From a virus (Duplodnaviria; Heunggongvirae; Uroviricota; Caudoviricetes): DNA of 64,000 nucleotides. Of the stretch, positions 2,476 to 32,865 are shown in pieces (the stretch's first letter is position 1; each line of letters opens with the position of its first letter). The stretch lies in the IMG/VR virus record IMGVR_UViG_3300033463_000001, positions 211,298 through 275,297 of that record. The stretch is one strand, 5' to 3'. The notes beneath the pieces are model-generated. The model had not been told where the DNA came from. It did no database searches and worked only from the letters and a program-made list of their open reading frames with translations. The translations under genes and the position numbers were made by a program.

Positions 2476-2479
2476 ATCA

Positions 2480-4642
2480 ATGGAAGATAGAATTGTCAAG
2501 AAAATATCTTTAGAACCGCTTAAATCAAGGGTTCCAGGTTCTCTTTGGTATATAGGCCAGGAGGACGCGATTGGTACGTTATGCGCTACAACTGTGGCAA
2601 AATCCGGCAATTACAATAAGATAATCAGCGATATTGAGATTCCGGAGGAGTTCGTCGACATCATACGAGACTTTACAGATATAGATATCCTTCTTCCTAA
2701 TCCTGATGAAGATGGTAAGTACTATAGTATTCAGCCGTACACACCGGAATACATGGAAGAACACAAAGATGACCAGATTGTTTATTACACGAAGGCTGTT
2801 GATGTGCTTTATCCTGCAAGTGTTCTGGAAGACGGAGGAAGTGGTGATGTTACCGTTCAGCAAATGCACATTTTCAGCAAAGAAAGCGGTTCCGGTGAAC
2901 AAATACACAAATATCTACGTTACTATACATTGCGTAAGTGGTATCAATTCTTTCTTGAGTACTACAAAATGCTCGACGTTGAAATCTGTAAGGACGGAAC
3001 GCGCAAAAAATACGATTCTTTTGCGACGCTGCGCGAGGAATACCCGGAGTTGACACGTGATTACACCTATGTTTTTATGAACAGGATGGACGACCTGTGT
3101 GAGATACGTGGCGGTCGCGACTTCTTTGAGTGGATGTGCGAGAAGTGTTTCAAGATGTATCGCATGCCTGACGGTACAAATTATCCAACGTATATGTACT
3201 ACTCCGAGATATCCGCAGAGATTGACTGGTTCGAGAAATACAATAAGAAATTCAGTGGTGTTACAACCATTGATGAATGTATAGCCAGCGATGATTGCTG
3301 TGTATGCCAGGCGTATCTTCGAAAAGGTGGATATGATACCTATTTGTGGATGATTAACCTTCCGGAACCTACACACGATATCGAAACAAAGGAGGCTGAG
3401 ATTACCATACCGTTCCTGCTACCAGTTCGCACAGAGAATCTAGGTAGCCTATCAATGTTTGCGAAGGAATGGGATGCAAACGAGGTTTATAATGTCAATG
3501 CGGACGGAGTGAAGAGTACTGGTAGACTTGTTCTTTTCCAAGGGATGAGTTATGCATTGTCTGCACTCGGTAAAACGAACGGAGGTTTCAATTATAGCGA
3601 AATATACAGGGAACGTATCTTTGGTAATTTGGATGCAACGAACTACAACGATGTAGAACGCAAATACGAGGAATTACCAGATAGTAAGAAACAATGGGAA
3701 GATGCTACAGACCTTGAGGGATATGCTTATGACCAAGATATTTTTGTCAGCGGTGTATGCGATAGCTCATCAAGCATGTTGGAGGACCCTATTTTCCCAA
3801 CTGACGATAGAGGACAGCAACTGCCTGGGTCTCTCAAGAAGAGATTGAATCCAGACGGTACTTTTAACGGTTTTATCAACCCAGGTTCATATGACACACT
3901 TGATATCACGTACCATGCAGGCAATGTGGCTTGCTTGGATGAACTATGTGTCCTTACAGGGGACAATTTTAAGAACTCCGGTCTACCCGTTTCGGACAGT
4001 GGTAAAACGCTTTACACGGGGCATATCATCGTAGGCATGCTTTTTGAAGTGGTTGCTTCGGATGGTACTGTTGTAGTCAGCGCAGCAACAACTCCTGATA
4101 ACTCATTCTTCGATATTGAGTCGTTCAGTAGTTACATGACCGGCAATTCGCTGCAATGTCAAATCTACTACCTTAAAAACGCACGCATATTGCGCTATGA
4201 TAATGGCGGATATTATAGCCCTGATGTAGTTTATAATGCAAATAACACAGTTAGTATTGAAAATTTACCAATTCACAATACATTGTATGTAGATACATTT
4301 GGTGTGTCGTTGTCGAAGTGGGTTTATAACCTTGCTGGTGGTATGAGTTATCCTATTTACTACTACAAGTTAACAGGTGATTCATCGTCAAATTGCATAT
4401 TTTATATGCATTCAACGTTTATGAGCCCGGACAATCACTACGGTGGGGTGATATTTATCCCTACTGTAAGAAACGAGGTTTATTTAGGTATTAGCAACCA
4501 GGAAAAACGAGACGTTGATATTTATATAGATAGAGGGCTTCATACTCTGTATGAGAAACAATTGAAGCTTGGCGAAGTGGCATCATTGGACGATTTGGTG
4601 CAGTACGGTAATGGATTTTATAATATATTGAGTGACAAGTAA
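2480..4642 (+). CDS. hypothetical structural protein (720 aa)
   Basis: Long ORF starting 5 nt after the upstream stop, same strand as the tail-fibre block. No recognisable catalytic motif. Confidence 0.55.
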   Translation: MEDRIVKKISLEPLKSRVPGSLWYIGQEDAIGTLCATTVAKSGNYNKIISDIEIPEEFVDIIRDFTDIDILLPNPDEDGKYYSIQPYTPEYMEEHKDDQIVYYTKAVDVLYPASVLEDGGSGDVTVQQMHIFSKESGSGEQIHKYLRYYTLRKWYQFFLEYYKMLDVEICKDGTRKKYDSFATLREEYPELTRDYTYVFMNRMDDLCEIRGGRDFFEWMCEKCFKMYRMPDGTNYPTYMYYSEISAEIDWFEKYNKKFSGVTTIDECIASDDCCVCQAYLRKGGYDTYLWMINLPEPTHDIETKEAEITIPFLLPVRTENLGSLSMFAKEWDANEVYNVNADGVKSTGRLVLFQGMSYALSALGKTNGGFNYSEIYRERIFGNLDATNYNDVERKYEELPDSKKQWEDATDLEGYAYDQDIFVSGVCDSSSSMLEDPIFPTDDRGQQLPGSLKKRLNPDGTFNGFINPGSYDTLDITYHAGNVACLDELCVLTGDNFKNSGLPVSDSGKTLYTGHIIVGMLFEVVASDGTVVVSAATTPDNSFFDIESFSSYMTGNSLQCQIYYLKNARILRYDNGGYYSPDVVYNANNTVSIENLPIHNTLYVDTFGVSLSKWVYNLAGGMSYPIYYYKLTGDSSSNCIFYMHSTFMSPDNHYGGVIFIPTVRNEVYLGISNQEKRDVDIYIDRGLHTLYEKQLKLGEVASLDDLVQYGNGFYNILSDK

Positions 4643-5544
4643 TGGCAAACGGACTTTACGGACAGACAATTCCGGCGAACATAACATCCAGAGATGTTGA
4701 GATATGGTACACGTACAGTGAAAACCATAATACTGTTAGTAGCGAATCGGGTATATGGAAACAGCTTGATTCGAATATTTTGCGTCAACAGACACGAGAT
4801 GTAAGCAACGGTGCGCCGGATGAGTTCCTTGAGGGTATGTATAAAATTAACCTTCCGGCAAGCGTGTTTAATAAGCCTGGATTCTACAGTGTCTACATTA
4901 AACCGCGCGAGATTCGTGCAACAATTGTTGACGTATCTGCATTGCGTGATTTCCCGGATGTACGTGGAATCGTTGTCAACGCAGAAGCCGTAGATGGTGA
5001 GTTCCGTTCGCTTTTCAACACAAATGATGGACTTGTTGGGTACCGCGTGTGCTATCTTGACACATCAACCGGAACAAGGCAGGATTATGTAAGGCTTGTA
5101 ACTAGTAACACAAAATGTGAACCAGTTATTAAGCAAGCCAGGAACAGCTCTGACCGTTCACGTATGTACGTTTACAACTCATCGTCCACGCTTACATTCA
5201 TTACACTTACTCCGTCTATGACAACGTCGTATTCGGCAGCGAATATTGTCCCGTACATTGGTGTTAAAGACCAGGAGGTTTTATTCATCAACACAAAGTT
5301 CACGCCGATACACTTCGATATACACATTGTTGAGAATGACGCAGATACTCTGACAACTCTCATCAAGGGTGACCAAGTTCTCAATATGGAGAATGGTCTC
5401 ACAACCATCTTCACAGATAATGGTGAACCGTTTACACAGTATCGCACTGTTACAATCAAGGATGAGTACACCGGTCAACCCGTTAAGCGTCAGCGTGTCA
5501 ATATGGGTGGCAACATCGATACAAGAGAGACAATTGATATGTAA
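4642..5544 (+). CDS. hypothetical structural protein (300 aa)
   Basis: ORF with start overlapping the upstream stop (ATGG/TAATGG coupling); long and gap-free. Confidence 0.5.
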   Translation: MANGLYGQTIPANITSRDVEIWYTYSENHNTVSSESGIWKQLDSNILRQQTRDVSNGAPDEFLEGMYKINLPASVFNKPGFYSVYIKPREIRATIVDVSALRDFPDVRGIVVNAEAVDGEFRSLFNTNDGLVGYRVCYLDTSTGTRQDYVRLVTSNTKCEPVIKQARNSSDRSRMYVYNSSSTLTFITLTPSMTTSYSAANIVPYIGVKDQEVLFINTKFTPIHFDIHIVENDADTLTTLIKGDQVLNMENGLTTIFTDNGEPFTQYRTVTIKDEYTGQPVKRQRVNMGGNIDTRETIDM

Positions 5545-8500
5545 TGGCTACAAAGAGTTATACACAATATAGCAAACGGACGAAACACCAAGTTGCTGGT
5601 AAATCTGTCATTTTCGAAACAGACCTGACCACATTGCAGGACATGTCGAGTGTAGAGAATGACAGTGTTCCTGTGTACTCTAGCGGTAATATTGTCATTA
5701 CAAAATCAAACGAACAACACTACCAGCGCTCACACAAGACGGCCGGATACCTAGAAAACCAGCATGGTGGCACAATATGGAACGGAGAGATACTTAATGA
5801 GCTTCCGGTTGACGCAAATAGTTGCTCTGCGACACAGATTCTCAAGCGTGACTATAATAAGTTACAGTCATTTGCATATTACGGTTCATGCATGGAGTTG
5901 TTCCGTGCGTCTCTGAACCACATTGTAGAGGCATTTCCGGGTGAAATTTTCGTTGAGGCGTTTCCATCAGGTAGCGGCATTGGTATCCCTCATAGAGATT
6001 CAACGGCAAACGGTACTCCGTTGAGTGGTACCACTTCGGATGGTCTTGTTGCCGACTGTATGTGCAGTAATCCATTCAACATTGATATATTCGCAACTTC
6101 GGTTAGCAAGGACTTGACGTTAAGTAATAAACTCAAATACTTTGCCAACGGAGGATGCCGCAATTATAATGTGATAAGGCCGGATGGTAGCAAATATGCT
6201 ATTGAAGAATGGAACGTTATCAACCGCAGCGACAAAGACTGTTTCATTCCTGGAGATATTGTATGTGAAGTTGAAATAGGCGCAGCCGTTAACGACTTGG
6301 GTATCAGCACAATGGAAATCAATAAGGATTTCGAGGTTGGCTTGGGTCACCAGGATGGCAACTTCATGCGTGTGCTTATTATCAAGACAGATAGCGGCTA
6401 TGGTATTTTTACCAATGAGAAATACCTTGGCTACCACATCCGTCCGAATGACGCGTGCATCAACGAAGCCTACTCAAAACTGTCTATATTTGAACAATAT
6501 CTTTTAAATAGAGAGACACTGCCGATGTATAAGGCAACGTTCGAGGTTATCTACGAGACTTCGACAGGATACGAGCGTGGCCTCGAATATTTCATTTTCC
6601 CGACAGACATTAGCGGTTACAACTTGGATATCACCGGCAACCAATACGACGTATATGCCGGTTCGCTCGCTAATCTTGGTGTTCTGTACGATGAGTTATA
6701 CTCTGACAACCTGTATCGTTCAATGACACATGAGGCCATCAGCAACATGGACTTCACAAAGATTGACGAAAACAGTGAGACAGAGTACACACTTGGTGTG
6801 GAGAAAATGAAGAAAGTTATCCGTGTCCTTGGTAGGTGCTTCGACGAGATAAAGGTCTATATTGACGGTATTGAGAATGTTCACACCATCTCTTACTCTA
6901 ATGCGGCCGGAACCAGTGACTATTCTCTTTCTGACGAGTTGGAGAATGACGGTTGGGATATCGCAAGCGTTGTTGCGTTACAAAAGAAAAACTACTACGA
7001 ACATACCGGAGAAACGTTCACTGAGGAAAGCACGATGCCTATCAATGACACAGATTTCATTGATAAGATAATTTACTACATCGGTGCAGACAATCACCAG
7101 TTTGAACACGGTAAGTTCTATAGGTGCACACAGGATACATCACGTATTCAAATAACAAACACGCGTAGTGGTTCTATCGACTTTGTTGACGGTGGAATCA
7201 TGAAGACATTGCGTACATGTTTGTCTAAACTTACTCCTGCTTGGAAACAATATCTGCCGCTTACATTGAAAAGAAGCAGTGGAAAGTGGCGCCTCACCAT
7301 GAGCAACGGTACTGAGTTGATGAATGCCGATACAATCGACGAGTTCAAGTTCGGTATCACACAAGACATGATTGTTGACACGCCTATTACTAGGTACGTC
7401 TTCAATATCACCATGTTCTTATGGGAGGAGAGTGTTCCGTATGCTGCCGGTGAAAAGGTTTACACTGATAAGGAGCCTTTTGATGTATGTACCAACCTTA
7501 TTGTTGACAGCAAGGGTGAAACACATACACTATACCGTGAGTTTTCTGAGGTTGACGCAGAATATAAGCCGTATGGCAATGAGAGTGATGCGAAGTTCCT
7601 GACTTGCTGTGGTGGAGAAGTTCCGGCTAACGGGCAACAACTCATGACTGAGATTGTGAAGTTTATCCACTACAATGGAAAGAAGTACATCCTTGACTGC
7701 AACGATGAACTGCGTGAACTTGTTAATGGTGAGGTTGTAACACATCCTATTGTAAACGGATGTATTGAGTTGCGCGGTGAGACTATTCCAGTTCAAAGCG
7801 AGAAACGCATCCTGCACACTGTAACGAGTTATTTCGACAATAAGACTTGGACGGCCAGTGAGATAAACTACGAGTTCCAGAAAAGGTTGAAGCTCAACTC
7901 TCGCGCCATTTTACGCAAGAAAGGTACGGCAAACGCAATTGAGTCGTTGCTTGCTCTGTGGGGAATGAAATCGGATAGGTTCGTTAGCAATAGTTCTAAC
8001 ACCGACCTTGTTTCTGACTACAGCATACGCGAGACATCCATCTATACAGATGCCATTAAAGACACGTACGAGCCTACCAGAGAGCTTCCGACGATGGATT
8101 GGTATAACTATATCAAAACATACACATACGACACTCCAAACGCAAGAATGAATATCTACGATGCATATCGTGGATTGCCGGTTACGTATGTACAATACTA
8201 CATCGACCCGACGGACGTAAGCGGCGAAGCCTACACAACCAACGCATACGACTACAAGAACACAAAGCGCAAGGAGGCGTTCCGTATGGTATATCCGTAT
8301 TTTGACAACACAGCAGAATACGACGGTGGTATGTACTACCAGATGTACGGTGGGTGGTTAAAGAAGACTCCGTACTGTTTCGGTGATAAGAACTTGATTC
8401 TTTGCGGTGAGACATTCACTGAGACACTGCGCAACATTCACTTAGTTGACAATATAGAAGCATTGAAAGGACTGCGCTATAACTCCTTGTACGATGGATT

Positions 8501-9878
8501 CGTTTGTGAGGTACGGGATAACAGCATTCCTTACATGAATATTAGCGGTGAGTTGCTTCCGGTGAAGACTGAGAGTGTGAAATTTGTCAATAACGGTGGC
8601 ATCCTGAATGAACGTACCATATTGTCTTATGTTGAGGTACCGATGTACTTTGACGGATTCACTGTTGGTAACGTAACATATAGCGGTGATGTAAAAATAT
8701 CCAATCCTTGCTTCGAAGACTTCGAGGAGATTATTGACCTCTACGACCTGCCTAGTGAGCGCCCGACAACGAAGAAGATATACCTATATTACACAAAGGA
8801 TGGTGAGAAATACCCTGTTGACATTTACAACCTTGAATCCGGCGTTACTGCTGATATGATTCACGTGGATATCGAGATGGATACGGATATGGGCGGCGAT
8901 GACCCGTCTGTTCTCATGTACGCTGTTAGCGAATACTTGGAACCAGGACAAAACTATTCAAACTACTGGGTACTGGACGACGTTGACAACTACCAGTCTT
9001 TCGCCATGTCTAATAACCCATACTACCAAATAGGTTGGACTAGACTCAAGGAAAACGACCCGCGCGCATTGACGCTTAACTCGATTAAGACCATCATAAC
9101 AGGTAATAACCCACACAGTGCACGTATTCCTTATGATGATGGTTCCGAGTACTTATATCGCTTCGTGAAACTGTTTAAATACCCGTACATGCATCGTGAC
9201 TTCGATGAGCGTTGTTTCCAGGATGTAGAGGCGGCGTATGATGAGATATACATGTATGGATTTGAGAATATCTTTACTGATAAGTACTCAACGTACATCA
9301 ATCCGACTCCGATTGCAGAATATCGTTACGAGGACATGTCCGGCGCAACTCCGGATGATGACGGGAAACTTGTGCGCTATATCGGCGAGACGCGTACGCA
9401 AGAACCTAAATATATCAAAGGTGCATTCTATCGCTATGCCAAGAGTAGTGATACGTGGAATTTCGAGGAACAGGAGAAGGTTTATATCAACGGCATCTAC
9501 GACACAAAGTGCCATGCCTTTGCAAATGTTAAACTGAGTGACGGTTCCGTATTAAAGTGGGGTGATGTTGGTAACCAGTTAACTGATATCGCAGCGTACG
9601 GAGACACTCCGTTCCCGAAACTGTATGACGACGACACAGATTCTAACCCGAACCGTATCATCAACACGAAGTATGTTGATATTGAGTTCCACAACGACAG
9701 TGCTGACATAGAATTGGTGAAGTACTATGATGTTGCATTGGTACACTATATTCAACAGTTGCTCCCGTCAACTATTATTGCGTCGATACGTTTCGGTCGT
9801 TACCGTGATTGTGGTATCGGATGTATGATGGTACCGTACATTGTTCCTATACATGAGGACGATTTCTTGGTGCGCTAA
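5544..9878 (+). CDS. giant virion/tail protein (1444 aa)
   Basis: 4.3 kb uninterrupted ORF, start coupled to the upstream stop (TAATGG). Size and position immediately before the fibre modules suggest a tail/baseplate component. Confidence 0.6.
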   Translation: MATKSYTQYSKRTKHQVAGKSVIFETDLTTLQDMSSVENDSVPVYSSGNIVITKSNEQHYQRSHKTAGYLENQHGGTIWNGEILNELPVDANSCSATQILKRDYNKLQSFAYYGSCMELFRASLNHIVEAFPGEIFVEAFPSGSGIGIPHRDSTANGTPLSGTTSDGLVADCMCSNPFNIDIFATSVSKDLTLSNKLKYFANGGCRNYNVIRPDGSKYAIEEWNVINRSDKDCFIPGDIVCEVEIGAAVNDLGISTMEINKDFEVGLGHQDGNFMRVLIIKTDSGYGIFTNEKYLGYHIRPNDACINEAYSKLSIFEQYLLNRETLPMYKATFEVIYETSTGYERGLEYFIFPTDISGYNLDITGNQYDVYAGSLANLGVLYDELYSDNLYRSMTHEAISNMDFTKIDENSETEYTLGVEKMKKVIRVLGRCFDEIKVYIDGIENVHTISYSNAAGTSDYSLSDELENDGWDIASVVALQKKNYYEHTGETFTEESTMPINDTDFIDKIIYYIGADNHQFEHGKFYRCTQDTSRIQITNTRSGSIDFVDGGIMKTLRTCLSKLTPAWKQYLPLTLKRSSGKWRLTMSNGTELMNADTIDEFKFGITQDMIVDTPITRYVFNITMFLWEESVPYAAGEKVYTDKEPFDVCTNLIVDSKGETHTLYREFSEVDAEYKPYGNESDAKFLTCCGGEVPANGQQLMTEIVKFIHYNGKKYILDCNDELRELVNGEVVTHPIVNGCIELRGETIPVQSEKRILHTVTSYFDNKTWTASEINYEFQKRLKLNSRAILRKKGTANAIESLLALWGMKSDRFVSNSSNTDLVSDYSIRETSIYTDAIKDTYEPTRELPTMDWYNYIKTYTYDTPNARMNIYDAYRGLPVTYVQYYIDPTDVSGEAYTTNAYDYKNTKRKEAFRMVYPYFDNTAEYDGGMYYQMYGGWLKKTPYCFGDKNLILCGETFTETLRNIHLVDNIEALKGLRYNSLYDGFVCEVRDNSIPYMNISGELLPVKTESVKFVNNGGILNERTILSYVEVPMYFDGFTVGNVTYSGDVKISNPCFEDFEEIIDLYDLPSERPTTKKIYLYYTKDGEKYPVDIYNLESGVTADMIHVDIEMDTDMGGDDPSVLMYAVSEYLEPGQNYSNYWVLDDVDNYQSFAMSNNPYYQIGWTRLKENDPRALTLNSIKTIITGNNPHSARIPYDDGSEYLYRFVKLFKYPYMHRDFDERCFQDVEAAYDEIYMYGFENIFTDKYSTYINPTPIAEYRYEDMSGATPDDDGKLVRYIGETRTQEPKYIKGAFYRYAKSSDTWNFEEQEKVYINGIYDTKCHAFANVKLSDGSVLKWGDVGNQLTDIAAYGDTPFPKLYDDDTDSNPNRIINTKYVDIEFHNDSADIELVKYYDVALVHYIQQLLPSTIIASIRFGRYRDCGIGCMMVPYIVPIHEDDFLVR

Positions 9879-9892: not shown

Positions 9893-9901
9893 TATTTATT
9901 G
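9893..9901 (+). promoter_or_regulatory. TATTTATTG motif 13 nt upstream of ATG (recurring, 5 copies)
   Basis: Exact 9-mer shared with 14456, 32838, 33409 and 52065, always 13-19 nt upstream of a + strand structural gene start; consensus (G/A)TATTTATTGnTAG. Confidence 0.4.
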
Positions 9902-9914: not shown

Positions 9915-10631
9915 ATGGATACAATAGCGGATACACTACGTGGAACGATTTTGTCACTCAAGCAAATTAGTGATAGGCTGAAAAAGCTCGCTAATGCGCT
10001 TGGTGATATGCCATCTGGTACCACAATATACACATCAATCGAAGAGATAAATAATACAGTTTATGAAAGTGCCGCCTCTATTATCGAGTACCTTCAAGGC
10101 GAAGATAGTGGCGCTACAAACACTGCCATTTTGGAGGCTATTGGTGCAATTGAATTTGATAAGTCGGGATTAGCTACAGATATTCAAGCCAATGAAATAA
10201 TTAGCGACGTCAGTGGCCTACCAAGTGAATTACACACAGTATTGGAAACCGTGTCCGGTATAACTGGTTATGCCATACAGGGTAGTGGTACTCCTGAAGA
10301 TGTGAACCTCACTGTTGTAGATGACAAAATAGGAGACATTGCAGAAATTGTAAGTGCGATTACTGGTGGTGAGATTGATTGTACAATACCAGGTAACTAC
10401 GCTCTCGAAACAACACTTGTTAATGCTCGCGATTCAATCCTAAATGAAGTTAGTGGCGTAAGTCGCGAAATAGGTACAGACACAGACCAGGTTACAGTGC
10501 ATGAAAAACTAGATTGGCTCGTCGACTCAACGGGGGAATGCACATTTGTAAGAAACAACGATGGAACCGATACATGGACGCTTATTCTAGATAGGAGTGC
10601 GTCGATTAACAATAACACACTAAACGTATAG
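9915..10631 (+). CDS. fibre-like module protein, paralog family (copy 1 of 3)
   Basis: 238 aa. Shares block FDKxGLATDxQANEIIxDVSGLPxEL...VLExVSGITGYAxQGSGxxEDVNLTVVDxKIGD with ORFs 14483..15277 and 17871..18548, each preceding a DGR target gene. Confidence 0.6.
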   Translation: MDTIADTLRGTILSLKQISDRLKKLANALGDMPSGTTIYTSIEEINNTVYESAASIIEYLQGEDSGATNTAILEAIGAIEFDKSGLATDIQANEIISDVSGLPSELHTVLETVSGITGYAIQGSGTPEDVNLTVVDDKIGDIAEIVSAITGGEIDCTIPGNYALETTLVNARDSILNEVSGVSREIGTDTDQVTVHEKLDWLVDSTGECTFVRNNDGTDTWTLILDRSASINNNTLNV

Positions 10632-10639
10632 TCTAAGAT

Positions 10640-11944
10640 ATGGATGTAACAAAAATACAAAAAGGTAATACAACGTACAATATTTCTGTACAAGGTGTTG
10701 CAACACAAGTAGAACGTGCTGAGGCTGCTGCAAATCAAGCTACAGTTGCTGCCGTTGCTGCTCAACAGGCCGTGACATCAACACACGAGCTTGTCGGTGG
10801 TGAATATGTTCCTAGCTTCGACGCTACAGTAACTTATCATGTTGGTAATTTAGTATTCCATCGTAATAACGACGATGGTCATGTGTTCAGGTGTATTGCA
10901 GAGAGAGCTCCAGGGCCTTGGGTTGGTTCAACGGATGCTTCTTTCGTTCAGACATCTTGCTACGGTGAGATAATGGATATGCGTGGCCACGATATAAATA
11001 TTGAGAGTGTAACTGTTAAACTAAAACCGGACATGGTTAAAGAGTCTCTTGGTGGAGCACCTGCGCTTTCTGGTATCACTGTATTCTTAAAAACAGGAGT
11101 CGGTGATGAAGGCTCGACTTATTCCGGAGTAACAGATGAGAATGCAGAATATACTTTCTCAAACATCCCTTGGGGAACTCAGTATACAATTTTCACAGAA
11201 ACTGAAGCCGTATCTGGTTATGCAGACCCACGGCCGAAGTCTGTTCAATCTGCGAACATGTACCACCGAAACGTAACGCTTTTCTATAGGTTGCAAATGA
11301 CGGGATGGTATGTGATTACAAAGAGTAGTGTTGAACACATTGATATCGCAGACTGGGATACATCAAACAACGACCAGGCAGAGTTACTTGGTTATCAAAA
11401 TAGTCAGTTTAGGTTTGCTATTAAGATTAAAGGACGCGCAACTCAACAGGGCGCATGGTCTAATCCAGGAAACGTAGAAATTAATATTCCGAGCTTATAC
11501 TATGCAAGTACTAACTCTGCCACGTTCATGACAGATGCCTACCTTGCAGATGTTGAGTATCCGGCAGGTGGTGAAGTTTATAGCCGTCTCGCTTTCAACA
11601 CAAAGGCGATTCTTGATAATAAAGGTACACAAGGTGTTCAAGCTGCTACGTTCTGCCATAACGCTACAGTAGAAATCGGAGGTGAAACATATCATGGATG
11701 CTTGCCGCTGCTTGCTATGCTCAACCTGTTTACTAATGGTAGTGCGGAGCGTACTGAGTTCTATAACACCATGAACGAATACCTGACGTGGCTTGGTGGT
11801 ACGCCACTGTTTCTTCGCAGTGGCACCTGGTGGTCCAGCGAGCAGTACAATAACGAGCAAGCTTGGTACATCTACCATGGTAGTCTGAGCAACCACAACA
11901 AGACTAACACGAACAACGTTGCGGTGCCGTTTTACGACCTTTAA
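10640..11944 (+). CDS. DGR target protein 1 (putative receptor-binding protein) with C-terminal variable region
   Basis: 434 aa. The last ~42 codons (...TWWSSEQYNNEQAWYIYHGSLSNHNKTNTNNVAVPFYDL) match TR1 except at TR adenines. N-terminus is paralogous to the other two targets. Confidence 0.8.
   Translation: MDVTKIQKGNTTYNISVQGVATQVERAEAAANQATVAAVAAQQAVTSTHELVGGEYVPSFDATVTYHVGNLVFHRNNDDGHVFRCIAERAPGPWVGSTDASFVQTSCYGEIMDMRGHDINIESVTVKLKPDMVKESLGGAPALSGITVFLKTGVGDEGSTYSGVTDENAEYTFSNIPWGTQYTIFTETEAVSGYADPRPKSVQSANMYHRNVTLFYRLQMTGWYVITKSSVEHIDIADWDTSNNDQAELLGYQNSQFRFAIKIKGRATQQGAWSNPGNVEINIPSLYYASTNSATFMTDAYLADVEYPAGGEVYSRLAFNTKAILDNKGTQGVQAATFCHNATVEIGGETYHGCLPLLAMLNLFTNGSAERTEFYNTMNEYLTWLGGTPLFLRSGTWWSSEQYNNEQAWYIYHGSLSNHNKTNTNNVAVPFYDL
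11818..11943 (+). repeat. DGR variable region VR1
   Basis: ~126 nt nearly identical to 12513-12638. There are 6 mismatches, all A in the TR copy (A->C,G,T,C,G,C in VR), plus one G/C at the extreme 3' end. Confidence 0.85.
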
Positions 11945-11979
11945 TTTTTAGTTTAAAGCTGCTTGCAAGGCATATTGTA

Positions 11980-12450
11980 ATGCCGCCGCACAGCTATACA
12001 AAGAAATACAAAAAAAGACAATTCATAAAAACATCACACGCAGTGGCGCGGATAACTAAAGTTCAGATTTTTAACTCCGTTCTTGGCCTATTAAAGTACC
12101 TAGAACGTACAAAAGACCAGTTTCCGAAAGGCGCAGGACGCGAATATAAGGAACGGATATCACATATCGTGCTATACGAGCTGATTCCGTTTTTGAAAGA
12201 CGCGTACGAAAGCAAAGGAGACCAGAAACGGAGGTTGGATGCCCTGAAGTCGTTTAAGAACAGTTTGGATATTCTGAGCTATGTTTTGAAACTATGTTCG
12301 GATTTCCACTGGATTTCAGTTACACACATGGCGAAAATATCTCTTATGATAGATGATATTGAAACACAATGTAATAGCTGGATTAAACGAACGAAGGCAT
12401 CCGGGTCAGAGTCCGAAGACTTACTGGTCGACGGAGAGTGCCCTAAATAA
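11980..12450 (+). CDS. avd: accessory variability determinant-like small basic helical protein
   Basis: 156 aa ORF between target and TR/RT, the canonical Avd position. Basic and helix-rich, with an FPKGAGREYKERI segment resembling four-helix-bundle Avd family proteins. Confidence 0.55.
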   Translation: MPPHSYTKKYKKRQFIKTSHAVARITKVQIFNSVLGLLKYLERTKDQFPKGAGREYKERISHIVLYELIPFLKDAYESKGDQKRRLDALKSFKNSLDILSYVLKLCSDFHWISVTHMAKISLMIDDIETQCNSWIKRTKASGSESEDLLVDGECPK

Positions 12451-12512
12451 AGGTGGCAACATACTCACCCCCAGCAATGGAAGAGTTATATCGATAATTG
12501 TTGCAAAAACGA
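12451..12512 (+). other. conserved TR leader element (copy 1)
   Basis: AGGTGGCAACATACTCACCCCCAGCAATGG...AGTTATATCGATA immediately 5' of TR1. Homologous leaders precede TR3 (16988-17059) and TR2 (20588-20651). Confidence 0.5.
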
Positions 12513-12638
12513 CAGTGGCAACTGGTGGTCCAGCGAGCAGTACAATAACGAACAAGCTTGGTACATCAACAATGGTAGTCTGAACAACAACAACAAGACT
12601 AACACGAACAACGTTGCGGTGCCGTTTTACGAGCTTTA
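12513..12638 (+). repeat. DGR template region TR1
   Basis: Non-coding copy of VR1, rich in AAC (Asn) codons in the VR frame. It ends 3 nt before the RT start codon. Confidence 0.85.
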
Positions 12639-12641
12639 TTC

Positions 12642-13877
12642 ATGGAAAATAACGTAGTGGATATTGAAGAACTTTGGCTGGCAGAACAAGACTGTGCCAA
12701 GAGAAAAAGGAGTAGCACTGCGTGTGATGAATTTATGATAAACGAAGCCGCCAATGTGGCTAAGCTTTGGAAGGAACTAAACGACGGAACGTATGAGATA
12801 GGTTATAGCACAGCGTTTGTTGTAACAAGGCCTAAATTGCGAGAGGTGTTTGCGGCTGATTTTAGGGATAGGATTGCGCACCACTATATAATCAATAGGA
12901 CAATAAACCTGTTTGAAGCCCACTTTATTGAAGACAGCTACAATTGTCGTAAAGGAAAGGGCACGACATACGCAATTAAACGCATAGACGAACAGATACG
13001 CCAGATTTCCAATAACTTCACAACTGATTGTTGGATTCTGAAGTGTGATATCAAGAATTTTTTTATGAGCATCAACAAGAATATCCTTTGGAGAATGCTC
13101 GAAAAGTTCTTGATTGAAAACTACCAAGGAGACGATAAAGCATTTGTAATTAGCCTGACAAAGCAGATTGTAATGCATCGTCCGGAATTGAAATGTATCA
13201 GGCACGGTACGAATGACTTATGGGATGCGCTTGACACAGGGAAAAGTCTGTTTAACAGTCTACCGTACAAAGGTCTTGCAATAGGCAACCTGACCAGTCA
13301 GATATTTGCAAACTTCTACCTCTCGTATTTCGATAAGTGGATAATCAGCAAACCAGGACTTGGGTACGGAAGATATGTGGACGACTTCATCGTATTAGCA
13401 AAGACAAAAGAGGAGTTGTTATCTCTAATACACGAAATTAGAGCATACCTCAAGGATAATCTTGAACTCCAACTACACCCGAAGAAGTTCTACCTGCAGC
13501 ACTACACGAAGGGTGTGAAGTTCACAGGGTACGTCTGGAAGATGAATCGCATCTACACAAGCAACCGGACTGTAAACAATGCTATTATGATGGTTAGAGA
13601 ATGGAACATGCATCCAGGATTGCCTGGTATAGAGCGATACATACAGAGATATAACTCATTTATGGGTTTCTTGCTATACACGTGTTCGTATAATATACGC
13701 AAGCGAATATGGGAGATGCTTGATGCAAAAATAAAGGAATTGATATATATTGATAAAGATTACAAAGCCGTCCATATCAAGGACAGATTCAACCGAATAA
13801 ACCTAAGAGCAAATGCAATACGGAATCATAAACATAGAAAGCGAAAACTTCGCTCAGTCAAAAAAAATAGCCGATAA
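12642..13877 (+). CDS. DGR-type reverse transcriptase 1
   Basis: 411 aa; RT motifs including IGNLTSQIFANFYL (DGR-specific I/LGxxxSQ instead of QGxxxSP) and YGRYVDDFIV (YxDD catalytic box). Confidence 0.9.
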   Translation: MENNVVDIEELWLAEQDCAKRKRSSTACDEFMINEAANVAKLWKELNDGTYEIGYSTAFVVTRPKLREVFAADFRDRIAHHYIINRTINLFEAHFIEDSYNCRKGKGTTYAIKRIDEQIRQISNNFTTDCWILKCDIKNFFMSINKNILWRMLEKFLIENYQGDDKAFVISLTKQIVMHRPELKCIRHGTNDLWDALDTGKSLFNSLPYKGLAIGNLTSQIFANFYLSYFDKWIISKPGLGYGRYVDDFIVLAKTKEELLSLIHEIRAYLKDNLELQLHPKKFYLQHYTKGVKFTGYVWKMNRIYTSNRTVNNAIMMVREWNMHPGLPGIERYIQRYNSFMGFLLYTCSYNIRKRIWEMLDAKIKELIYIDKDYKAVHIKDRFNRINLRANAIRNHKHRKRKLRSVKKNSR

Positions 13878-14376
13878 CCTATATTTTATCCGCGTAAAAT
13901 TAGGCGAAGACGGTAGTGGTTTTACACAAGCAATTGAGGCCGTCGTAACGCACGAACCAACAGAAGAAGATTTTGCCGGCTTACTGAATAGCTATACCGA
14001 TGGTGTTAAGCGTCATAAGATTGACGACGTGGATACATACGATAAGTCAGATAATGTGAACGGTTTCATTATAAATGGCGAGCATGCTTGGTTTGATAAG
14101 ACGACGCGCATGGGAATTATCAATTTGTTAGAATGTCAACAAAAGACCGGTGAGACATTCACAACTATAGACATCAACGATAAGCTATATGAACTAACAA
14201 TCAGTAGAGGGCTTGAGATGATGCAACAATTGGAGGTGTACGCCGGACAGTGTTTCTTGCGCACGGCGATACACAAGAAGAATATACAAGCACTTGATTC
14301 CGTTAGTGACATTGTAGCATATGACATAACGGATGGCTATCCGGAGCAACTGGAGTTCACACTGGCAGCACTCTAA
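13813..14376 (+). CDS. DGR-module-associated ~187 aa protein, paralog family (copy 1 of 3)
   Basis: Shares NxFxINGxxAWxDKxTRxGxxNLL...LEVYAGQC...TxGYPExLEF with 17302..17868 and 21941..22501, each located at the 3' end of a module. Overlaps the RT 3' end by 65 nt in another frame. Confidence 0.55.
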   Translation: MQYGIINIESENFAQSKKIADNLYFIRVKLGEDGSGFTQAIEAVVTHEPTEEDFAGLLNSYTDGVKRHKIDDVDTYDKSDNVNGFIINGEHAWFDKTTRMGIINLLECQQKTGETFTTIDINDKLYELTISRGLEMMQQLEVYAGQCFLRTAIHKKNIQALDSVSDIVAYDITDGYPEQLEFTLAAL

Positions 14377-14390
14377 CTGACTGGATTTGG

Positions 14391-14424
14391 GCGAGAACAC
14401 GATGCGTTGTTCTCGCTTTCTTTG
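14391..14424. terminator. Rho-independent terminator
   Basis: GCGAGAACA-cgatgcg-TGTTCTCGC hairpin followed by TTTCTTTG. Confidence 0.6.
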
Positions 14425-14455
14425 TCTATGTCCGTGGACAAACGCAGCAATTTGA

Positions 14456-14464
14456 TATTTATTG
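14456..14464 (+). promoter_or_regulatory. TATTTATTG motif (copy 2)
   Basis: GATATTTATTGTTAG, 19 nt upstream of ATG 14483. Confidence 0.4.
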
Positions 14465-14482
14465 TTAGATGTAGATACAATT

Positions 14483-15277
14483 ATGACAATAACAGAGTTA
14501 TTTAGAAAAGCAATCATGAGTCTCTCCGGGATTTCTCAAGTCCTCAAAGAGCTCTATAACTGGTCACACGAGAGTGTTGCCACAAAGGAGTCTGTTCAAC
14601 AGGAGCTTACCAACAAGGCCACCAAGCAGAATGTGACGGATGCACAATCCGCTATTATTGGTGCAATCAACAGCAAACCTGTTACACCGGCTACTGACCT
14701 AACACCGGTTACACAGGTCTTGGGTAGCTATAACTCCAGCAAAGGTACTATTCAAGACCAAATCGGCAATATTGTATTCGATAAGAATGGACTCGCTACT
14801 GATGCGCAGGCTAATGAAATTATCGGAGATGTCAGTGGGCTACCTGGTGAGTTGAATGCCGTTTTGGAAAGTGTTTCTGGTATTACCGGATATGCTTACC
14901 AAGGAAGTGGGTCTTCAGAGGATGTTAATCTCACAGTAGTAGACAATAAGATTGGTGACGTACAGGAGGTAATCGACACAATTAACGGCGGAACGATGGA
15001 TATTAATATTCCATCGGATTACGTTCGCGACACAACGGTTACAAGTGCCAAAACTGAGATTCTTAGCGCTATTACTGCTGTTAGTGGCTCGGTTGGTGTT
15101 GACAATAGCGGCGTGACTGTACACGAAAAAGTTGATACAATAGAAGCAATGGTGCGATACCTGTTCAATGGGTGTAGCATTGTAGAGAATAGTGACGATG
15201 TCGGAACAGGAAATCAAGGATATACAGTAATACTTGACCAGACAGCATCGATTAACGACGGAATACTTACATTATAA
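14483..15277 (+). CDS. fibre-like module protein, paralog family (copy 2 of 3)
   Basis: ORF track begins at TTG 14462; first ATG is 14483 (MTITELFRK). Strong identity to 9915..10631 over FDKNGLATDAQANEIIGDVSGLPGEL...VHEKVD. Confidence 0.6.
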   Translation: MTITELFRKAIMSLSGISQVLKELYNWSHESVATKESVQQELTNKATKQNVTDAQSAIIGAINSKPVTPATDLTPVTQVLGSYNSSKGTIQDQIGNIVFDKNGLATDAQANEIIGDVSGLPGELNAVLESVSGITGYAYQGSGSSEDVNLTVVDNKIGDVQEVIDTINGGTMDINIPSDYVRDTTVTSAKTEILSAITAVSGSVGVDNSGVTVHEKVDTIEAMVRYLFNGCSIVENSDDVGTGNQGYTVILDQTASINDGILTL

Positions 15278-15278
15278 C

Positions 15279-16841
15279 ATGAGCGCGAATAAAATTACAA
15301 AATTTCAGAAGGGTAACGTTATATACGACCTGTTTGCTCCCGGATTGGATGAAGCAGTAGCAAGTGCTGCTACCGCACAGAATAACGCCGAGTATGCTGC
15401 CAACACGGCTTCGTACGCTGCGGCTATGACATACCATATGCTTGGACTTGAGAATGTTCCTTTGTGGAACCAGTCCGATGCCTATGCAAAGAATGACATT
15501 GTTCGTAAGACGGTTGTTTCTGGGGGCGTGTCCAGTGACCATATCTTCCGTGCCAACAACGAAATTGCTGCAGGAACGGCGTGGAATGATGACCTATGGA
15601 CGGATACATCTGTGTGGGGTGAGATTCAAAACATGAAGGTTGGTGCTTTGTCTGTTGAGACGGTGCGTGTTACAGGATATATGTTCCAGGATGGCTCACT
15701 TATACCGGTTCCGGAAGGAGAGGCATTGAATGTTGTCTATAACGAGACCAACCACTTTTATTCCTTTAAGGCAGGCCTATGTGAGTTCTCAGTACCGCGT
15801 GGTACGGAATATGGCATCATTTATAGCCCGATTAATGGTTACAATACTCCGTCTGCTGCCTACTATAACGCTAATATGTCAACGCGTAGTATCACAGCTA
15901 CATATCACTATCGTCAAAGTGGTTGGTTTGGTGTTAAGACTGTAACTACAACGGTTAACAACACATCAAGTGTAAGCATCGAAGAAGTTCCAATGTCAGA
16001 GTGGAACCAGGCTGATAATGATGCATCAATAGGTATTAAGTTCTACGGACCTCTTGGTCACTACTTCCTGCCGAAAAACTGGAAAGACTATAGAACAACA
16101 GGTGTTCAATTCTCTTCTCTAAATATTGAGTTCTCTACCACTACTGCGGCAAACATGGAAGCATTGGTTATTGACCGGTATTTCCGCATTGGAACAGAGC
16201 TAACCTATCAAAAGAGTGGTGGTGTTGCAACGTGCATCATTACAAAGGCACAGGCAGACACTTGGTATCAAGGCAACGACGTTACCGATACCGACGGTGA
16301 CTTAATTGTCAGCGGACTTTCTTCTGAGGATAAAACAGCGTATCAAGCAGTTATCACGGCTCGTTATGACTATGGATTGAGTCCTGCGGTTGGTGGACAT
16401 ACGTTAAGTTCTAACAATGCAACACTGACGAATGACTGGGATGCCTTTGATGCAACGCAACAACTTGTTGAGATGTGGCAGGCATTTGCCAGCTTTAACC
16501 TTCAATCATTAACTGCGTGCGCTGCAGTGTGGGCACGTGGTAAATCGCTAACCATTGGAGAGTCAACGTATTACGGAAACTTACCTACTGCCGGTATGGT
16601 TCTCAGCCTTAGTGGAAACAGAAGCCAAATTCAACAGCATCTCAAGACAATCGGCGTCGACGCAGCCTATGCTGAAGCGTTTACCATCGGTACGGCGTCG
16701 TGGGGTTCCGGCAGCGCCGGTAACACCTGGTCGTCCTCACAGTTTAATGCTAGCATCGCGTGGTGCTTGAATACGTCTGGGGCGTTGCTCAGCCACAACA
16801 AGAGCTACAGTTACTCGGCGGTGGCCGTGTTCGACCTATAA
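15279..16841 (+). CDS. DGR target protein 3 with C-terminal variable region
   Basis: ATG at 15279 (MSANKITKFQKGN), directly after the upstream stop; N-terminus paralogous to 10640 (MDVTKIQKGN). The last ~43 codons match the orphan TR3 except at TR adenines. Confidence 0.8.
   Translation: MSANKITKFQKGNVIYDLFAPGLDEAVASAATAQNNAEYAANTASYAAAMTYHMLGLENVPLWNQSDAYAKNDIVRKTVVSGGVSSDHIFRANNEIAAGTAWNDDLWTDTSVWGEIQNMKVGALSVETVRVTGYMFQDGSLIPVPEGEALNVVYNETNHFYSFKAGLCEFSVPRGTEYGIIYSPINGYNTPSAAYYNANMSTRSITATYHYRQSGWFGVKTVTTTVNNTSSVSIEEVPMSEWNQADNDASIGIKFYGPLGHYFLPKNWKDYRTTGVQFSSLNIEFSTTTAANMEALVIDRYFRIGTELTYQKSGGVATCIITKAQADTWYQGNDVTDTDGDLIVSGLSSEDKTAYQAVITARYDYGLSPAVGGHTLSSNNATLTNDWDAFDATQQLVEMWQAFASFNLQSLTACAAVWARGKSLTIGESTYYGNLPTAGMVLSLSGNRSQIQQHLKTIGVDAAYAEAFTIGTASWGSGSAGNTWSSSQFNASIAWCLNTSGALLSHNKSYSYSAVAVFDL
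16709..16838 (+). repeat. DGR variable region VR3
   Basis: 130 nt versus 17060-17189 at a constant offset of 351 nt. About 20 mismatches, all at TR adenines, plus one terminal G/C. Confidence 0.85.
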
Positions 16842-16987
16842 ATTTAGGTTCGCAAGTTACAGCATTGGGTCATTGCAGACACAATGCGCTATATAATACA
16901 TAAGTGAACATTGACATATACAGCAAGAGGTTAAATTCTCGACGCAATGTAAGCCAGCATGCTGATACTTACGGGTTAGGCAGCGCG

Positions 16988-17059
16988 CATTAATCATAGG
17001 TGGCCTACCACTTTCCCCCTGCTTGCAGGATAAGTTATATCGATAGAGTAGGCGTATAA
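16988..17059 (+). other. conserved TR leader element (copy for orphan TR3)
   Basis: AGGTGGCCTACCACTTTCCCCCTGCTTGCAGG...AGTTATATCGATAGAG, homologous to the leader 5' of TR1. Confidence 0.5.
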
Positions 17060-17189
17060 CGGCAACGCCGGTAACACCTGGTCGTCCTCACAGTATAATG
17101 CTAACAACGCGTGGTACTTGAATACGTCTGGGGCGTTGAACAACAACAACAAGAACAACAGTTACTCGGCGGTGGCCGTGTTCGAGCTA
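17060..17189 (+). repeat. DGR template region TR3 (orphan: no adjacent avd or RT)
   Basis: Intergenic, AAC-rich (aacaacaacaacaagaacaac) copy of VR3. Confidence 0.8.
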
Positions 17190-17192
17190 GGA

Positions 17193-17204
17193 ATGAAATG
17201 CTAA
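17193..17204 (+). pseudogene. vestigial RT start (ATG AAA TGC TAA) at the position where RT genes begin after TR1 and TR2
   Basis: In modules 1 and 3 an RT ATG lies 3-5 nt after the TR end. Here an ATG at the same offset is followed by a stop after 3 codons. Confidence 0.4.
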
Positions 17205-17301
17205 TAGCAGATTTAATTACATTGGCGTGCCGGAGACGGCTCGTTTAGGAAGGTCGAGAATACCTCTTTGCTGTATTTATTGTAAGACAAAAACATGTTA
17301 T

Positions 17302-17868
17302 ATGGAATATATAATTGAGAGATATGCGTCGGACGATTTCCGTACGTCAGAAAAGATTGGAAATAGGTACATCATACGCACAAAAATTGAAGACTTGCCG
17401 GAAAGTGAGTCTGTTCGCTGCGTCGAAAGTATCATTGACCATAGTCCGGCACAAGCAGATTATGATGCACAGGTAGCAAGCTACATAGGAGATGTGCAAC
17501 AGGAGAAACTGTCATGCATACGGCGCTATGATGTGTCGGATAACGTCAATATCTTCTACATTGATGAGCACGCAACATGGCTTGACAAAGATACTCGCGT
17601 CGGTCTGGACAACCTCATTAAGAAACAAAAGGAGGCCGGTGCTACAGAAACGACCTTGTGGTTAGCTGGTGTCAGCTTTGTTATCGAGATTGACCATGCA
17701 ATAGACCTTCTCAGACAACTTGAGATTTACGCAGGTCAATGCTACAACAAGACAGAGGAACATAAGGCAGCAGTTCTTGCAACTACAACAATAGCTGGCG
17801 TTGAGAACTACGACTACACAACAGGTTATCCGGAGCCACTGCACTTTACGATTAGTAATAATGAATAA
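17302..17868 (+). CDS. DGR-module-associated ~188 aa protein, paralog (copy 2 of 3)
   Basis: ORF track starts at 17227. Paralog alignment and ATG 17302 (MEYIIERYASDDF) give 188 aa. Conserved NIFYIDEHATWLDKDTRVGLDNL...LEIYAGQCYN...TTGYPEPLHF. Confidence 0.55.
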   Translation: MEYIIERYASDDFRTSEKIGNRYIIRTKIEDLPESESVRCVESIIDHSPAQADYDAQVASYIGDVQQEKLSCIRRYDVSDNVNIFYIDEHATWLDKDTRVGLDNLIKKQKEAGATETTLWLAGVSFVIEIDHAIDLLRQLEIYAGQCYNKTEEHKAAVLATTTIAGVENYDYTTGYPEPLHFTISNNE

Positions 17869-17870
17869 CC

Positions 17871-18548
17871 ATGCCAGAGTCTATTAGCCAATTGTTTAAC
17901 AAGACCATACTCAGTCTAACAGGGATATCTACATTCCTGAGTAATATCTACGCCTGGCTTACAAGCAACGTTGCTACGAAGAGTGACGTTTCTACAGCCA
18001 CGCAGAATGGTGCTACAAAGACAGACCTTAGCACATCAACCAATACCATTGTAACTGCTATCACGAATAAGCCAGTGACACAGATTGGACCTATAATGGA
18101 TGTGCTGGGTGACTTCAATGCAGGTAATGGTACAATACAAGACCAGATTGCAGACCTTGGAACTGCTGTTGGGCAGATTGAGTTTGATAAGACCGGGTTG
18201 GCAACAGAGAGTGGAACAACGAGCGCCGTTACGGCAGCGGCCGGGAGTGTTATCAATGCGCTACCAAAAGACTACGCACAGAGAGGGGAGAATAGTGGTG
18301 CAACTAATAGTGCAATTCTAAACGCTTTGAGCGATGATAGTGGAAATACTGTTGTTGATATTCTTACCGACGAAACAAGTGGCCTATCAGCCATAAGTAA
18401 TGCAGTTTCAGGACTGCCTGAAGTAATGAAAAATATGTATGCGGCACACTTTGAACAAAACGAAGATGGTGAGGATACGTATACAATGGTAATGCCGTTA
18501 ACAGCCATAGTTAGTGAAACCGGCGAAGCAATCACAATAAACATTTAA
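17871..18548 (+). CDS. fibre-like module protein, paralog family (copy 3 of 3, diverged)
   Basis: 225 aa; retains the IQDQI...FDKTGLATE block and the same position in the module. Confidence 0.5.
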   Translation: MPESISQLFNKTILSLTGISTFLSNIYAWLTSNVATKSDVSTATQNGATKTDLSTSTNTIVTAITNKPVTQIGPIMDVLGDFNAGNGTIQDQIADLGTAVGQIEFDKTGLATESGTTSAVTAAAGSVINALPKDYAQRGENSGATNSAILNALSDDSGNTVVDILTDETSGLSAISNAVSGLPEVMKNMYAAHFEQNEDGEDTYTMVMPLTAIVSETGEAITINI

Positions 18549-18556
18549 TACAATAT

Positions 18557-20128: not shown

Positions 20129-20169
20129 TTAAAAGCGCTAGGACATTCCTGTCCAGCGCATAAACAGCA

Positions 20170-20583
20170 ATGGGAAAAATTGTAGATAAATACACAGACG
20201 GTAGGGAGATACCTCTATATAAAGCAACGGAAACATTGCTTTATGACGTTGATAATTTGATTAATTTTTTACAGAAAGATAGGAAGCATACTCTTGGACA
20301 ACACATGCTTCTCCTTGTTTTGGATATGCTGGATTGCGTGGCGGTAGCATACGATTTTCCAGAAAGAAAAGTTGAACAATTAAAGTTGTATATTTCGAAG
20401 TATAACAACTTGGCAACAATTCTTAAAATGTGTGAAATAAAGGGTTATCTAATGAACAATAATAAGAACTATTATGTTGAGATGATTAAACCTTTAGGAA
20501 ACGCATATAAACAAGCTAAAGGTTGGTTAGTATCCGCAAACAAAGAAGCCGGAGTCTGTATGGATAATACAGAGAGCGCGTAA
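20170..20583 (+). CDS. avd: accessory variability determinant-like protein
   Basis: 137 aa helical ORF between target 2 and TR2. The segment KDRKHTLGQHMLLLVLDML resembles the PRKHG region of known Avd proteins. Confidence 0.55.
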   Translation: MGKIVDKYTDGREIPLYKATETLLYDVDNLINFLQKDRKHTLGQHMLLLVLDMLDCVAVAYDFPERKVEQLKLYISKYNNLATILKMCEIKGYLMNNNKNYYVEMIKPLGNAYKQAKGWLVSANKEAGVCMDNTESA

Positions 20584-20587
20584 AATT

Positions 20588-20651
20588 TAGGGTGGCTATC
20601 TACTTTCTCCAGAAATGGGAAGTTAAGAATAAGATAATGATAGCGACATAC
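20588..20651 (+). other. conserved TR leader element (copy 3)
   Basis: AGGGTGGCTATCTACTTTCTCCAGAAATGGGAAGTTAAGAATAAGATAATGATAG; same architecture as the TR1 and TR3 leaders. Confidence 0.45.
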
Positions 20652-20768
20652 GGCAACTGGTGGACGTCTTGTCAGAACAGTTCGACTAATGGAGTCAAAC
20701 TGAATAGTGGCTCCTTCAACAACAACAACAAGAACAACAGTAACTCTGTGTTGGTTTTGTTCGAGCCT
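20652..20768 (+). repeat. DGR template region TR2
   Basis: AAC-rich copy of VR2 ending 4 nt before the RT2 ATG. The ORF-track 'protein' 20592..20780 is just its translation. Confidence 0.85.
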
Positions 20769-20772
20769 AAAT

Positions 20773-30542: not shown

Positions 30543-30585
30543 ACAACGTGTATTTTCTTAAACTCAATACTAATATAGTCCTTTT

Positions 30586-32846: not shown

Positions 32847-32865
32847 TCAGATAATATATTATAAC

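Follow-up and report, generated by a model that had tools for sequence, protein, structure and literature searches.

The stretch of DNA analyzed here (64,000 nt, hereafter the window) belongs to a contig of about 327.3 kb (327,292 bp as JGI 3300028797 Ga0265301_10000011; also ENA ERZ27257207 k141_3338118), of which JGI, ENA, and Logan data gave independent assemblies. Megablast and tblastn searches found no nucleotide or protein relatives of it among 50,697 phage records. Its minus strand carries, between positions 22622 and 32752, a NAD salvage set (NAPRTase, NAD synthase, NUDIX, cytidylyltransferase-like, isochorismatase-like, and PRPP-synthetase-like proteins) together with a Thg1-like tRNA-His guanylyltransferase homologue, a DUF488 protein, and a 502-aa flotillin/SPFH protein, while further minus-strand genes include a homologue of T4 gp30.3 and DUF551 proteins. 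This gene set matches the published "NAD-jumbo phages" of animal guts, whose hosts are mostly assigned to Bacteroidota (PMC11662467), and the minus-strand promoters described below likewise point to a host of this phylum. We therefore take the source to be a gut or rumen jumbo phage of about 327 kb infecting a Bacteroidota host. No Shine-Dalgarno sequence was found before any of the genes examined.

On the plus strand, a run of giant proteins (2524, 953, 1673, 720, 300, 1444, and 1664 aa) extends from the left of the window (L004 1-9996) into it (window 1-9878 and 53247-58241). The 720-, 300-, 1444-, and 1664-aa proteins gave no Pfam match, and the 1444- and 1664-aa proteins no PHROG match either, while the 2524-, 953-, and 1673-aa proteins, which lie or start left of the window, have no precomputed Pfam hits. 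Within the 1664-aa protein about 750 aa are duplicated, and the two halves align with each other. Ten plus-strand, virion-side proteins matched no PHROG family, and PDB sequence searches with the 1664-aa and 656-aa proteins returned no match. The region from 9.9 to 22.5 kb (9915-22501) consists of three tandem paralogous tail-fibre modules, each made of a small "A" protein and a variable protein ending in the variable repeat (VR) of a diversity-generating retroelement (DGR). Additional annotation came from the 188-aa protein that starts at 17302 (weak matches to DUF4376 and to a tail-fibre PHROG), the 454-aa protein that starts at 33434 (Fn3_assoc and CHB_HEX_C domains), and the 656-aa protein encoded at 58251-60221 in the operon that starts at 52093 (strong tail-fibre PHROG matches and a Peptidase_S74 chaperone domain).

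An exact search for the 9-mer TATTTATTG revealed six copies in the 64 kb window, all of them on the plus strand. An earlier note on this DNA had listed five; four of these (9893, 14456, 32838, and 33409) lie where it placed them, the one given as 52065 exists but starts one base earlier, at 52064, and the copy at 17274 had been overlooked. Copy 1 (9893-9901) ends 13 nt before the ATG at 9915, the first gene of DGR tail-fibre module 1. Copy 2 (14456-14464) ends 18 nt before the ATG at 14483, which opens module 2, and lies 38 nt after a terminator-like plus-strand hairpin followed by a T-run (14391-14416), with which the module 1 transcription unit ends. Copy 3 (17274-17282) is separated by 19 nt from the ATG at 17302, a start backed by alignment with two paralogues, where the 188-aa DUF4376/tail-fibre-like gene heads module 3. 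Copy 4 (32838-32846) lies in the divergent region 32753-32865, 19 nt before the ATG at 32866, and copy 6 (52064-52072) in the divergent region 51882-52092, 20 nt before the ATG at 52093, from which the tail-fibre operon 52093-61375 extends. Copy 5 (33409-33417) precedes the ATG of the 454-aa protein by 16 nt and follows immediately upon a hairpin of the form GCCAAG-N9-CTTGGC (33388-33408; with the motif, 33388-33417), so that the T-rich 9-mer also supplies the U-tract of what resembles a terminator of the upstream 162-aa gene. The five ATGs named in the earlier note were all correct, and its distance of 13 to 19 nt came close, the range over six copies being 13 to 20 nt. Its description of the downstream genes as structural or fibre genes held for those with tail-fibre hits, DGR targets, or carbohydrate-binding domains, but the 162-aa (ATG 32866) and 381-aa (ATG 52093) first genes carry no annotation; a virion or fibre role is thus evident for most units and presumed for these two. 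An AlphaFold model of the 381-aa protein reached a pLDDT of only 37 and gave no usable structure.

Each of the six ATGs belongs to the first gene of a plus-strand unit, and both plus-strand blocks that start within the window open with the motif (32838 and 52064). The three plus-strand blocks that finish within the window do so at hairpin-plus-T terminators: one with A-run and T-run flanks at the switch from the plus to the minus strand (22587-22610), likely the end of the unit begun at 17274, and two two-way terminator-like hairpins, at 35562-35584, where the unit begun at 33409 ends, and at 61385-61403, where the tail-fibre unit begun at 52064 ends. Ten gaps of at least 18 nt precede plus-strand genes; TATTTATTG occupies six of them, and the remaining four are internal gaps of DGR cassettes. 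It stands before none of the approximately 15 internal, tightly packed plus-strand genes, as would be expected of a promoter rather than of a translation signal. Judged from the gene map, the placement of the motif and of the terminators is the layout of operon-initial promoters.

The number of copies is well above what the composition of the window predicts: in the comparison with shuffled sequence that the earlier note had proposed, 100 dinucleotide-preserving shuffles gave a mean of 1.21 and a maximum of 3 copies, compared with the 6 observed. Intergenic DNA, according to a gene map derived from the ORF list, amounts to 2,358 nt (3.7% of the window), and all six copies fall into it, for which random placement gives a probability of 0.0368^6 ≈ 2.5e-9; by intergenic occurrences TATTTATTG ranks first among all 9-mers of the window. 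The signal is also sharp. With one mismatch allowed, 34 occurrences were observed and 31.3 expected, that is, no excess, and all 28 non-exact copies lie within ORFs; likewise, the 13-mer with two mismatches showed no excess (38 observed, 31 expected). Counts, placement, and sharpness therefore show that AT-rich background is not the cause, and this objection, which the earlier note had raised against its own reading, was borne out neither by the shuffles nor by the mismatch counts nor by the intergenic placement. The copies at 33409 and 52064 share the extended form TATTTATTGGTAG, in agreement with the earlier claim of two such copies; the wider consensus is TATTTATTGnTAGA, and nTAGA follows the 9-mer in the alignment of the sites. 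When the six copies were aligned with a seventh from the contig L007 (see below), the sole shared upstream feature was an A at -15 (7/7 sites) and at -14 (6/7) from the start of the motif, which may be a weak second element, and no TTTG or -33/-35-like box was found at a fixed distance in this seven-site alignment. The sequence TATTTTTG corresponds to TATTTATTG with one base deleted.

The seventh site was found through the 381-aa protein, for which a search of 5.8 billion proteins yielded a single diverged homologue (42% identity), encoded on the 8.8 kb contig L007 (SRR12177858), where the neighbouring fibre protein is 40% and the Thg1-like protein 56% identical to its counterpart. Although blastn detected no similarity between the DNA of L007 and that of the window, an exact TATTTATTG lies 20 nt before the orthologous ATG, in a divergent spacer of 36 nt, and it is the only copy on that contig even when one mismatch is allowed. 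Outside the motif and the ATG, the flanks of the two sites are about 36% identical. This conservation rests on one diverged relative and thus on one orthologous site, bringing the sites to seven in all. In L007 the motif lies inside a near-perfect inverted repeat, CCTATTTATTGTTG-AAA-CAACAATAGG (3300-3326), which may be an operator or a leader hairpin and is not seen at the window sites. Near-identical assemblies and strains of 96 to 97% identity (L001-L006, L011, and L012) keep the motif copies that they cover, which is only weakly informative. Scans of IMG/VR and JGI metagenomes for further relatives found none, and among GTDB genomes the only hit was a tail-fibre N-terminus from Muribaculaceae (L010), which is unrelated. 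Homologues of the 454-aa protein (P0002, P0010, and P0018) were set aside, as they come from unrelated phages and have only carbohydrate-binding domains in common with it, and at a gene of the 454-aa type L003 has a host-type promoter. A profile of the three "gene A" paralogues returned self hits only. An IMG/VR scan for TATTTATTGNTAGA-N8-17-ATG gave scattered single hits among the matches listed; the sole locus with 10 copies among these (L103) turned out to be a coding repeat.

Two other promoter-like classes occur in the same genome. The housekeeping (sigma-ABfr) promoter of Bacteroidota has the consensus -33 TTTG / -7 TAnnTTTG (PMC7366714), and the minus-strand early genes are preceded by sites of this type, TTTG-N20-TAnnTTTG, in three near-identical copies, GGATTTGcAAAATTgAAAAATTTTACaTAtCTTTG, at 26569-26600, 44487-44518, and 51901-51932 (all minus strand), the last of which reads TTTG-N20-TATCTTTG. 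Together with a fourth, right of the window (L013 14462-14541, minus strand), they conform to GGATTTG-N20-TAnCTTTG and stand before early or minus-strand operons. Since the copy at 51901-51932 lies inside a 53-aa ORF (51878-52039), this ORF is probably not a gene. The use of host-type promoters implies that, at least early in infection, the phage needs the host polymerase. As the earlier note had maintained, TATTTATTG is distinct from this minus-strand class: TAnnTTTG was found at none of the six TATTTATTG sites, and the combined pattern TTTG-N20-TAnnTTTG finds the minus-strand class only. Three copies of another exact motif, GGACTATATTAG, lie in the window, all on the minus strand (30570-30581, 32786-32797, and 51982-51993), before NAD synthase and flotillin genes. 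Beyond the right end of the window the motif recurs on the plus strand before a primase/SbcC-like operon (L013, about 16480) and, with one change, on the minus strand before a metallophosphatase gene (L013 15418-15504). All GGACTATATTAG copies, inside and outside the window, are intergenic and lie 18 to 33 nt upstream of their genes, and the host-type and GGACTATATTAG classes together sit 18 to 35 nt from their ATGs, similar to TATTTATTG. We regard GGACTATATTAG as a candidate middle promoter or as a candidate target of a phage sigma factor. No TATTTATTG was found in the 8 kb right of the window, including the plus-strand replication operon, and hence the motif tracks gene function and not strand.

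The earlier note had proposed recognition by a modified polymerase or a phage factor, and a protein of the proposed kind is indeed encoded about 7 kb past the right end of the window (window-equivalent 71010-71666; L015 1028-1684, minus strand). This 218-aa member of the sigma-70 family matches Sigma70_r2 (E=5e-10), Sigma70_r4 (E=1.4e-11), and phrog_351 (E=8e-37), its best relatives of solved structure in the PDB being SigA and RpoS. It comprises regions 1.2 (weak), 2, and 4 but lacks region 3, and its gene is third from last in a replication operon with primase, SbcC-like, and YqeY-like genes. The protein is the best visible candidate for the reader of TATTTATTG. It might just as well be the reader of GGACTATATTAG, and the remaining ~240 kb may contain further sigma or polymerase genes. 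Region 4 of a sigma factor normally reads the -35 element, and it speaks against this assignment that the 218-aa protein has region 4, yet no clear -35 box is seen at the TATTTATTG sites.

We consider it probable (about 75%) that TATTTATTG, with its extended form, is the core of a phage-specific, single-element late promoter class that serves virion and tail-fibre operons. The orientation of the motif in the sense of the genes, its position at the heads of plus-strand units and at both strand switches (32838 and 52064), and its exact conservation in L007 all argue for a promoter. As only 13 to 20 nt separate the motif from the ATG, no separate core promoter fits downstream, and since nothing else is shared among the sites, the 9-mer itself must be the core recognition element. 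It would act as a highly specific -10/-7-like element without a fixed -33/-35 box, recognized by RNA polymerase that a phage-encoded specificity factor has redirected; the host housekeeping holoenzyme would not read it. Initiation would be expected a few bases further on, either at the conserved purines 3 to 5 nt past the motif or at a distance of 6 to 8 nt, the spacing known from T4 and phiEco32, and the resulting leaders would be short, about 5 to 17 nt. A start 6 to 8 nt after the motif would, however, leave the gene at 9915 a leader of just 5 to 7 nt; in Bacteroides thetaiotaomicron, leaders of less than 10 nt make up only about 3.7% (PMC7366714). We infer the timing ("late") from gene content, and likewise the start of transcription at the motif and the identity of its reader. 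The promoter reading of the earlier note is thus supported, as far as sequence analysis goes, by every computational test able to refute it, though its term "-7-like" applies to geometry only, as the motif does not fit TAnnTTTG.

Several other explanations can be weighed against this reading. Exact, high-information sites are typical of operators too, and the 9-mer might be the binding site of a phage regulator (an activator, a repressor, or a factor loading an anti-terminator) beside a weak, cryptic core promoter; the inverted repeat around the L007 copy would suit this, as would a candidate sigma that has region 4 with no -35 box in sight. We nonetheless find such a site unlikely, for the motif is asymmetric and has one orientation at all seven sites, the inverted repeat is confined to L007, and the 13 to 20 nt before the ATG, with nothing shared but the A at -15/-14, leave no separate core promoter to regulate. 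The same narrow distance to the ATG could instead indicate an element acting in RNA, UAUUUAUUG in the late leaders, as a translation enhancer, a site for a phage RNA-binding protein, or a processing site. Bacteroidota do not use Shine-Dalgarno pairing, no such sequence precedes these genes, and four copies lie between co-oriented genes, where read-through transcription is possible. Against a role in RNA stand the restriction of the motif to genes that come first in their units, with none before the ~15 internal plus-strand genes, and the copies at 32838 and 52064, which open plus-strand blocks where no upstream plus-strand transcript is expected. Moreover, folding of the seven leader regions gave no shared or significant structure (z-scores from +1.2 to -1.6), and the other two motif classes, including the recognized host promoter, sit at similar distances from their ATGs, which makes an RNA element quite improbable.

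It is also improbable, to a slightly greater degree, that the unmodified host holoenzyme (sigma-ABfr type) reads the motif as a variant promoter, without the help of a phage factor and without a separate temporal class. The motif does resemble the host -7 element plus one base (TAttT-A-TTG as compared with TAnnTTTG), and the position of its 3' G relative to the conserved downstream purines matches the host -7 geometry (consensus from PMC7366714). But alignment to TAnnTTTG needs an insertion, TTTG is missing at the fixed distance of about 20 nt, none of the nine positions varies, not even those left free in host promoters, and the phage's own host-type promoters form a separate, internally similar class that stands only before other genes. 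We treat the likeness to the host element with a one-base insertion as an observation and not as evidence of descent. The least probable explanation, to which we give almost no weight, is chance or a duplication artefact, in which an AT-rich word was carried along as the tail-fibre module duplicated: copies 1 and 2 do precede paralogous genes, and 9.9-22.5 kb is made of three paralogous modules. These two copies, however, differ completely in their flanks and in spacing (13 as against 18 nt) and are therefore not carried-over duplicated DNA, copies 3 to 6 precede unrelated genes, and chance is excluded by the enrichment and placement statistics and by a motif kept in L007 without similarity of the surrounding DNA. 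Two smaller candidates were also discarded. The TTG of the motif is in frame with the downstream ORF at only one of six sites, and so it was rejected as a start codon. A recurring downstream ACAATA encodes Thr-Ile in three genes where it is coding (two of them paralogues), lies within the leader in L007, and varies in spacing from 9 to 40 nt.

A late promoter of this kind has several counterparts among known systems. T4 late promoters carry TATAAATA at -10, which is recognized by gp55 as the sigma, together with gp33 and the clamp protein gp45. Like them, TATTTATTG is one short, AT-rich, strongly conserved element that stands just before presumed late (virion) genes of a large lytic phage and would mark a temporal class distinct from the host-type early promoters. 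No -35 box is conserved upstream of it, although the A at -15 and -14 may be a weak second element. The window also encodes a T4 gp30.3 homologue. The sequence differs, though: the sense strand here has TATTTATTG, and a T4-like reading exists on the opposite strand only, TATTTAT being the reverse complement of ATAAATA. So read, the element points away from the genes at four of six sites and in L007 lies only 7 nt from the ATG of the opposite gene, and because of this orientation the reverse complement, CAATAAATA, was not accepted as a T4-like element. In addition, the visible sigma has regions 2 and 4, unlike gp55, and no genes for a gp55-like sigma, gp33, or a sliding clamp were seen in the ~80 of 327 kb examined.

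Another close precedent is phiEco32, in which the phage sigma gp36 recognizes one 9-bp element, tAATGTAtA, and transcription starts 6 to 8 bp downstream of it (PMC8948821). In both phages a single, near-invariant 9-bp element is the sole recognizable promoter feature and the sigma gene belongs to an earlier expression class; the phiEco32 element is read by a phage factor of the sigma-70 family on the host core enzyme, and the same is proposed here. Yet the sequences are unrelated, and the host phyla differ. Furthermore, gp36 lacks region 4, which is why the phiEco32 promoter has no -35 element, whereas the sigma found here has this region. More generally, the features in common with promoters read by phage sigmas (phiEco32 gp36, 7-11 gp47, and SPO1 gp28/gp34) are a phage-encoded factor of the sigma-70 family and a conserved non-host motif at operon heads. 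With the housekeeping promoter of Bacteroidota, TATTTATTG shares the host phylum, a TA start and a TTG end, and presumably a position near the start site and short, AT-rich leaders without Shine-Dalgarno sequences, but it is one base longer, has ATTG where the consensus has TTTG, and is fixed at all positions. The jumbo phages AR9 and phiKZ use the late motifs AACA-N6-TA/G and TATG, read by non-virion multisubunit polymerases (PMC5312081). This phage, too, is a jumbo phage with a short late motif proximal to the presumed start site, but the motifs are unrelated, the seven sites sharing neither TATG nor AACA-N6-TA/G, and no split beta/beta' polymerase genes were found in the ~80 kb examined (window and flanks).

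A fuller scheme, which we put forward tentatively and regard as possible rather than probable, would be a three-tier cascade. Host-type promoters would act early, and GGACTATATTAG would act in the middle phase, on genes for replication, NAD metabolism, and the sigma without region 3, after which this sigma would recognize a single-element late promoter, TATTTATTG, derived from the host -7 element by expansion of one base. If true, it would be the first case in which the promoter logic of an alternative sigma is defined for a phage of Bacteroidota and would show a phage sigma evolving specificity through a changed length of the host -7 element. To our knowledge, promoters of Bacteroidota phages are almost unknown. 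Searches gave no relevant literature hit for the 9-mer as a promoter, and no late-promoter consensus for Bacteroidota phages was found in the literature searched, including the crAss001 paper and PMC11662467, the latter yielding no promoter analysis. TATTTATTG would then be a late-promoter consensus not described before, ordinary in kind but new in sequence, and because an element of this kind was to be expected, its value is practical and confirmatory and not one of surprise. With the two other classes, it would permit annotation of operons and temporal classes in a 327 kb genome whose virion proteins are mostly without matches. It would also offer a direct experimental handle, with the phage sigma and host core enzyme on three defined templates, and could provide orthogonal, phage-specific promoter parts for the engineering of Bacteroides and Prevotella.

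The DGR modules headed by copies 1 to 3 deserve a separate description. Their variable and template repeats (VR/TR) lie at 11818/12513 in module 1, 16709/17060 in module 2, and 20001/20650 in module 3, with reverse transcriptase genes at 12642-13877 and 20707-21996, and differences between TR and VR fall on template adenines in 6/7, 11/14, and 16/17 cases. Between the window and L004, two independent assemblies, all 11 differences over 14.6 kb lie inside VR1 (window 11825-11913), which is direct evidence that the DGR is active in the population sampled. Module 2 contains a template repeat, yet no reverse transcriptase or Avd gene of its own; its VR is nonetheless diversified, which implies the use of a reverse transcriptase acting in trans. 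In a 97% identical strain (L011; JGI 3300041717), the first reverse transcriptase gene is missing through a deletion corresponding to window 12402-13762, and an IS605-type insertion (Y1 transposase and TnpB/OrfB) lies at window 17220/17221, between TR2 and motif copy 3.
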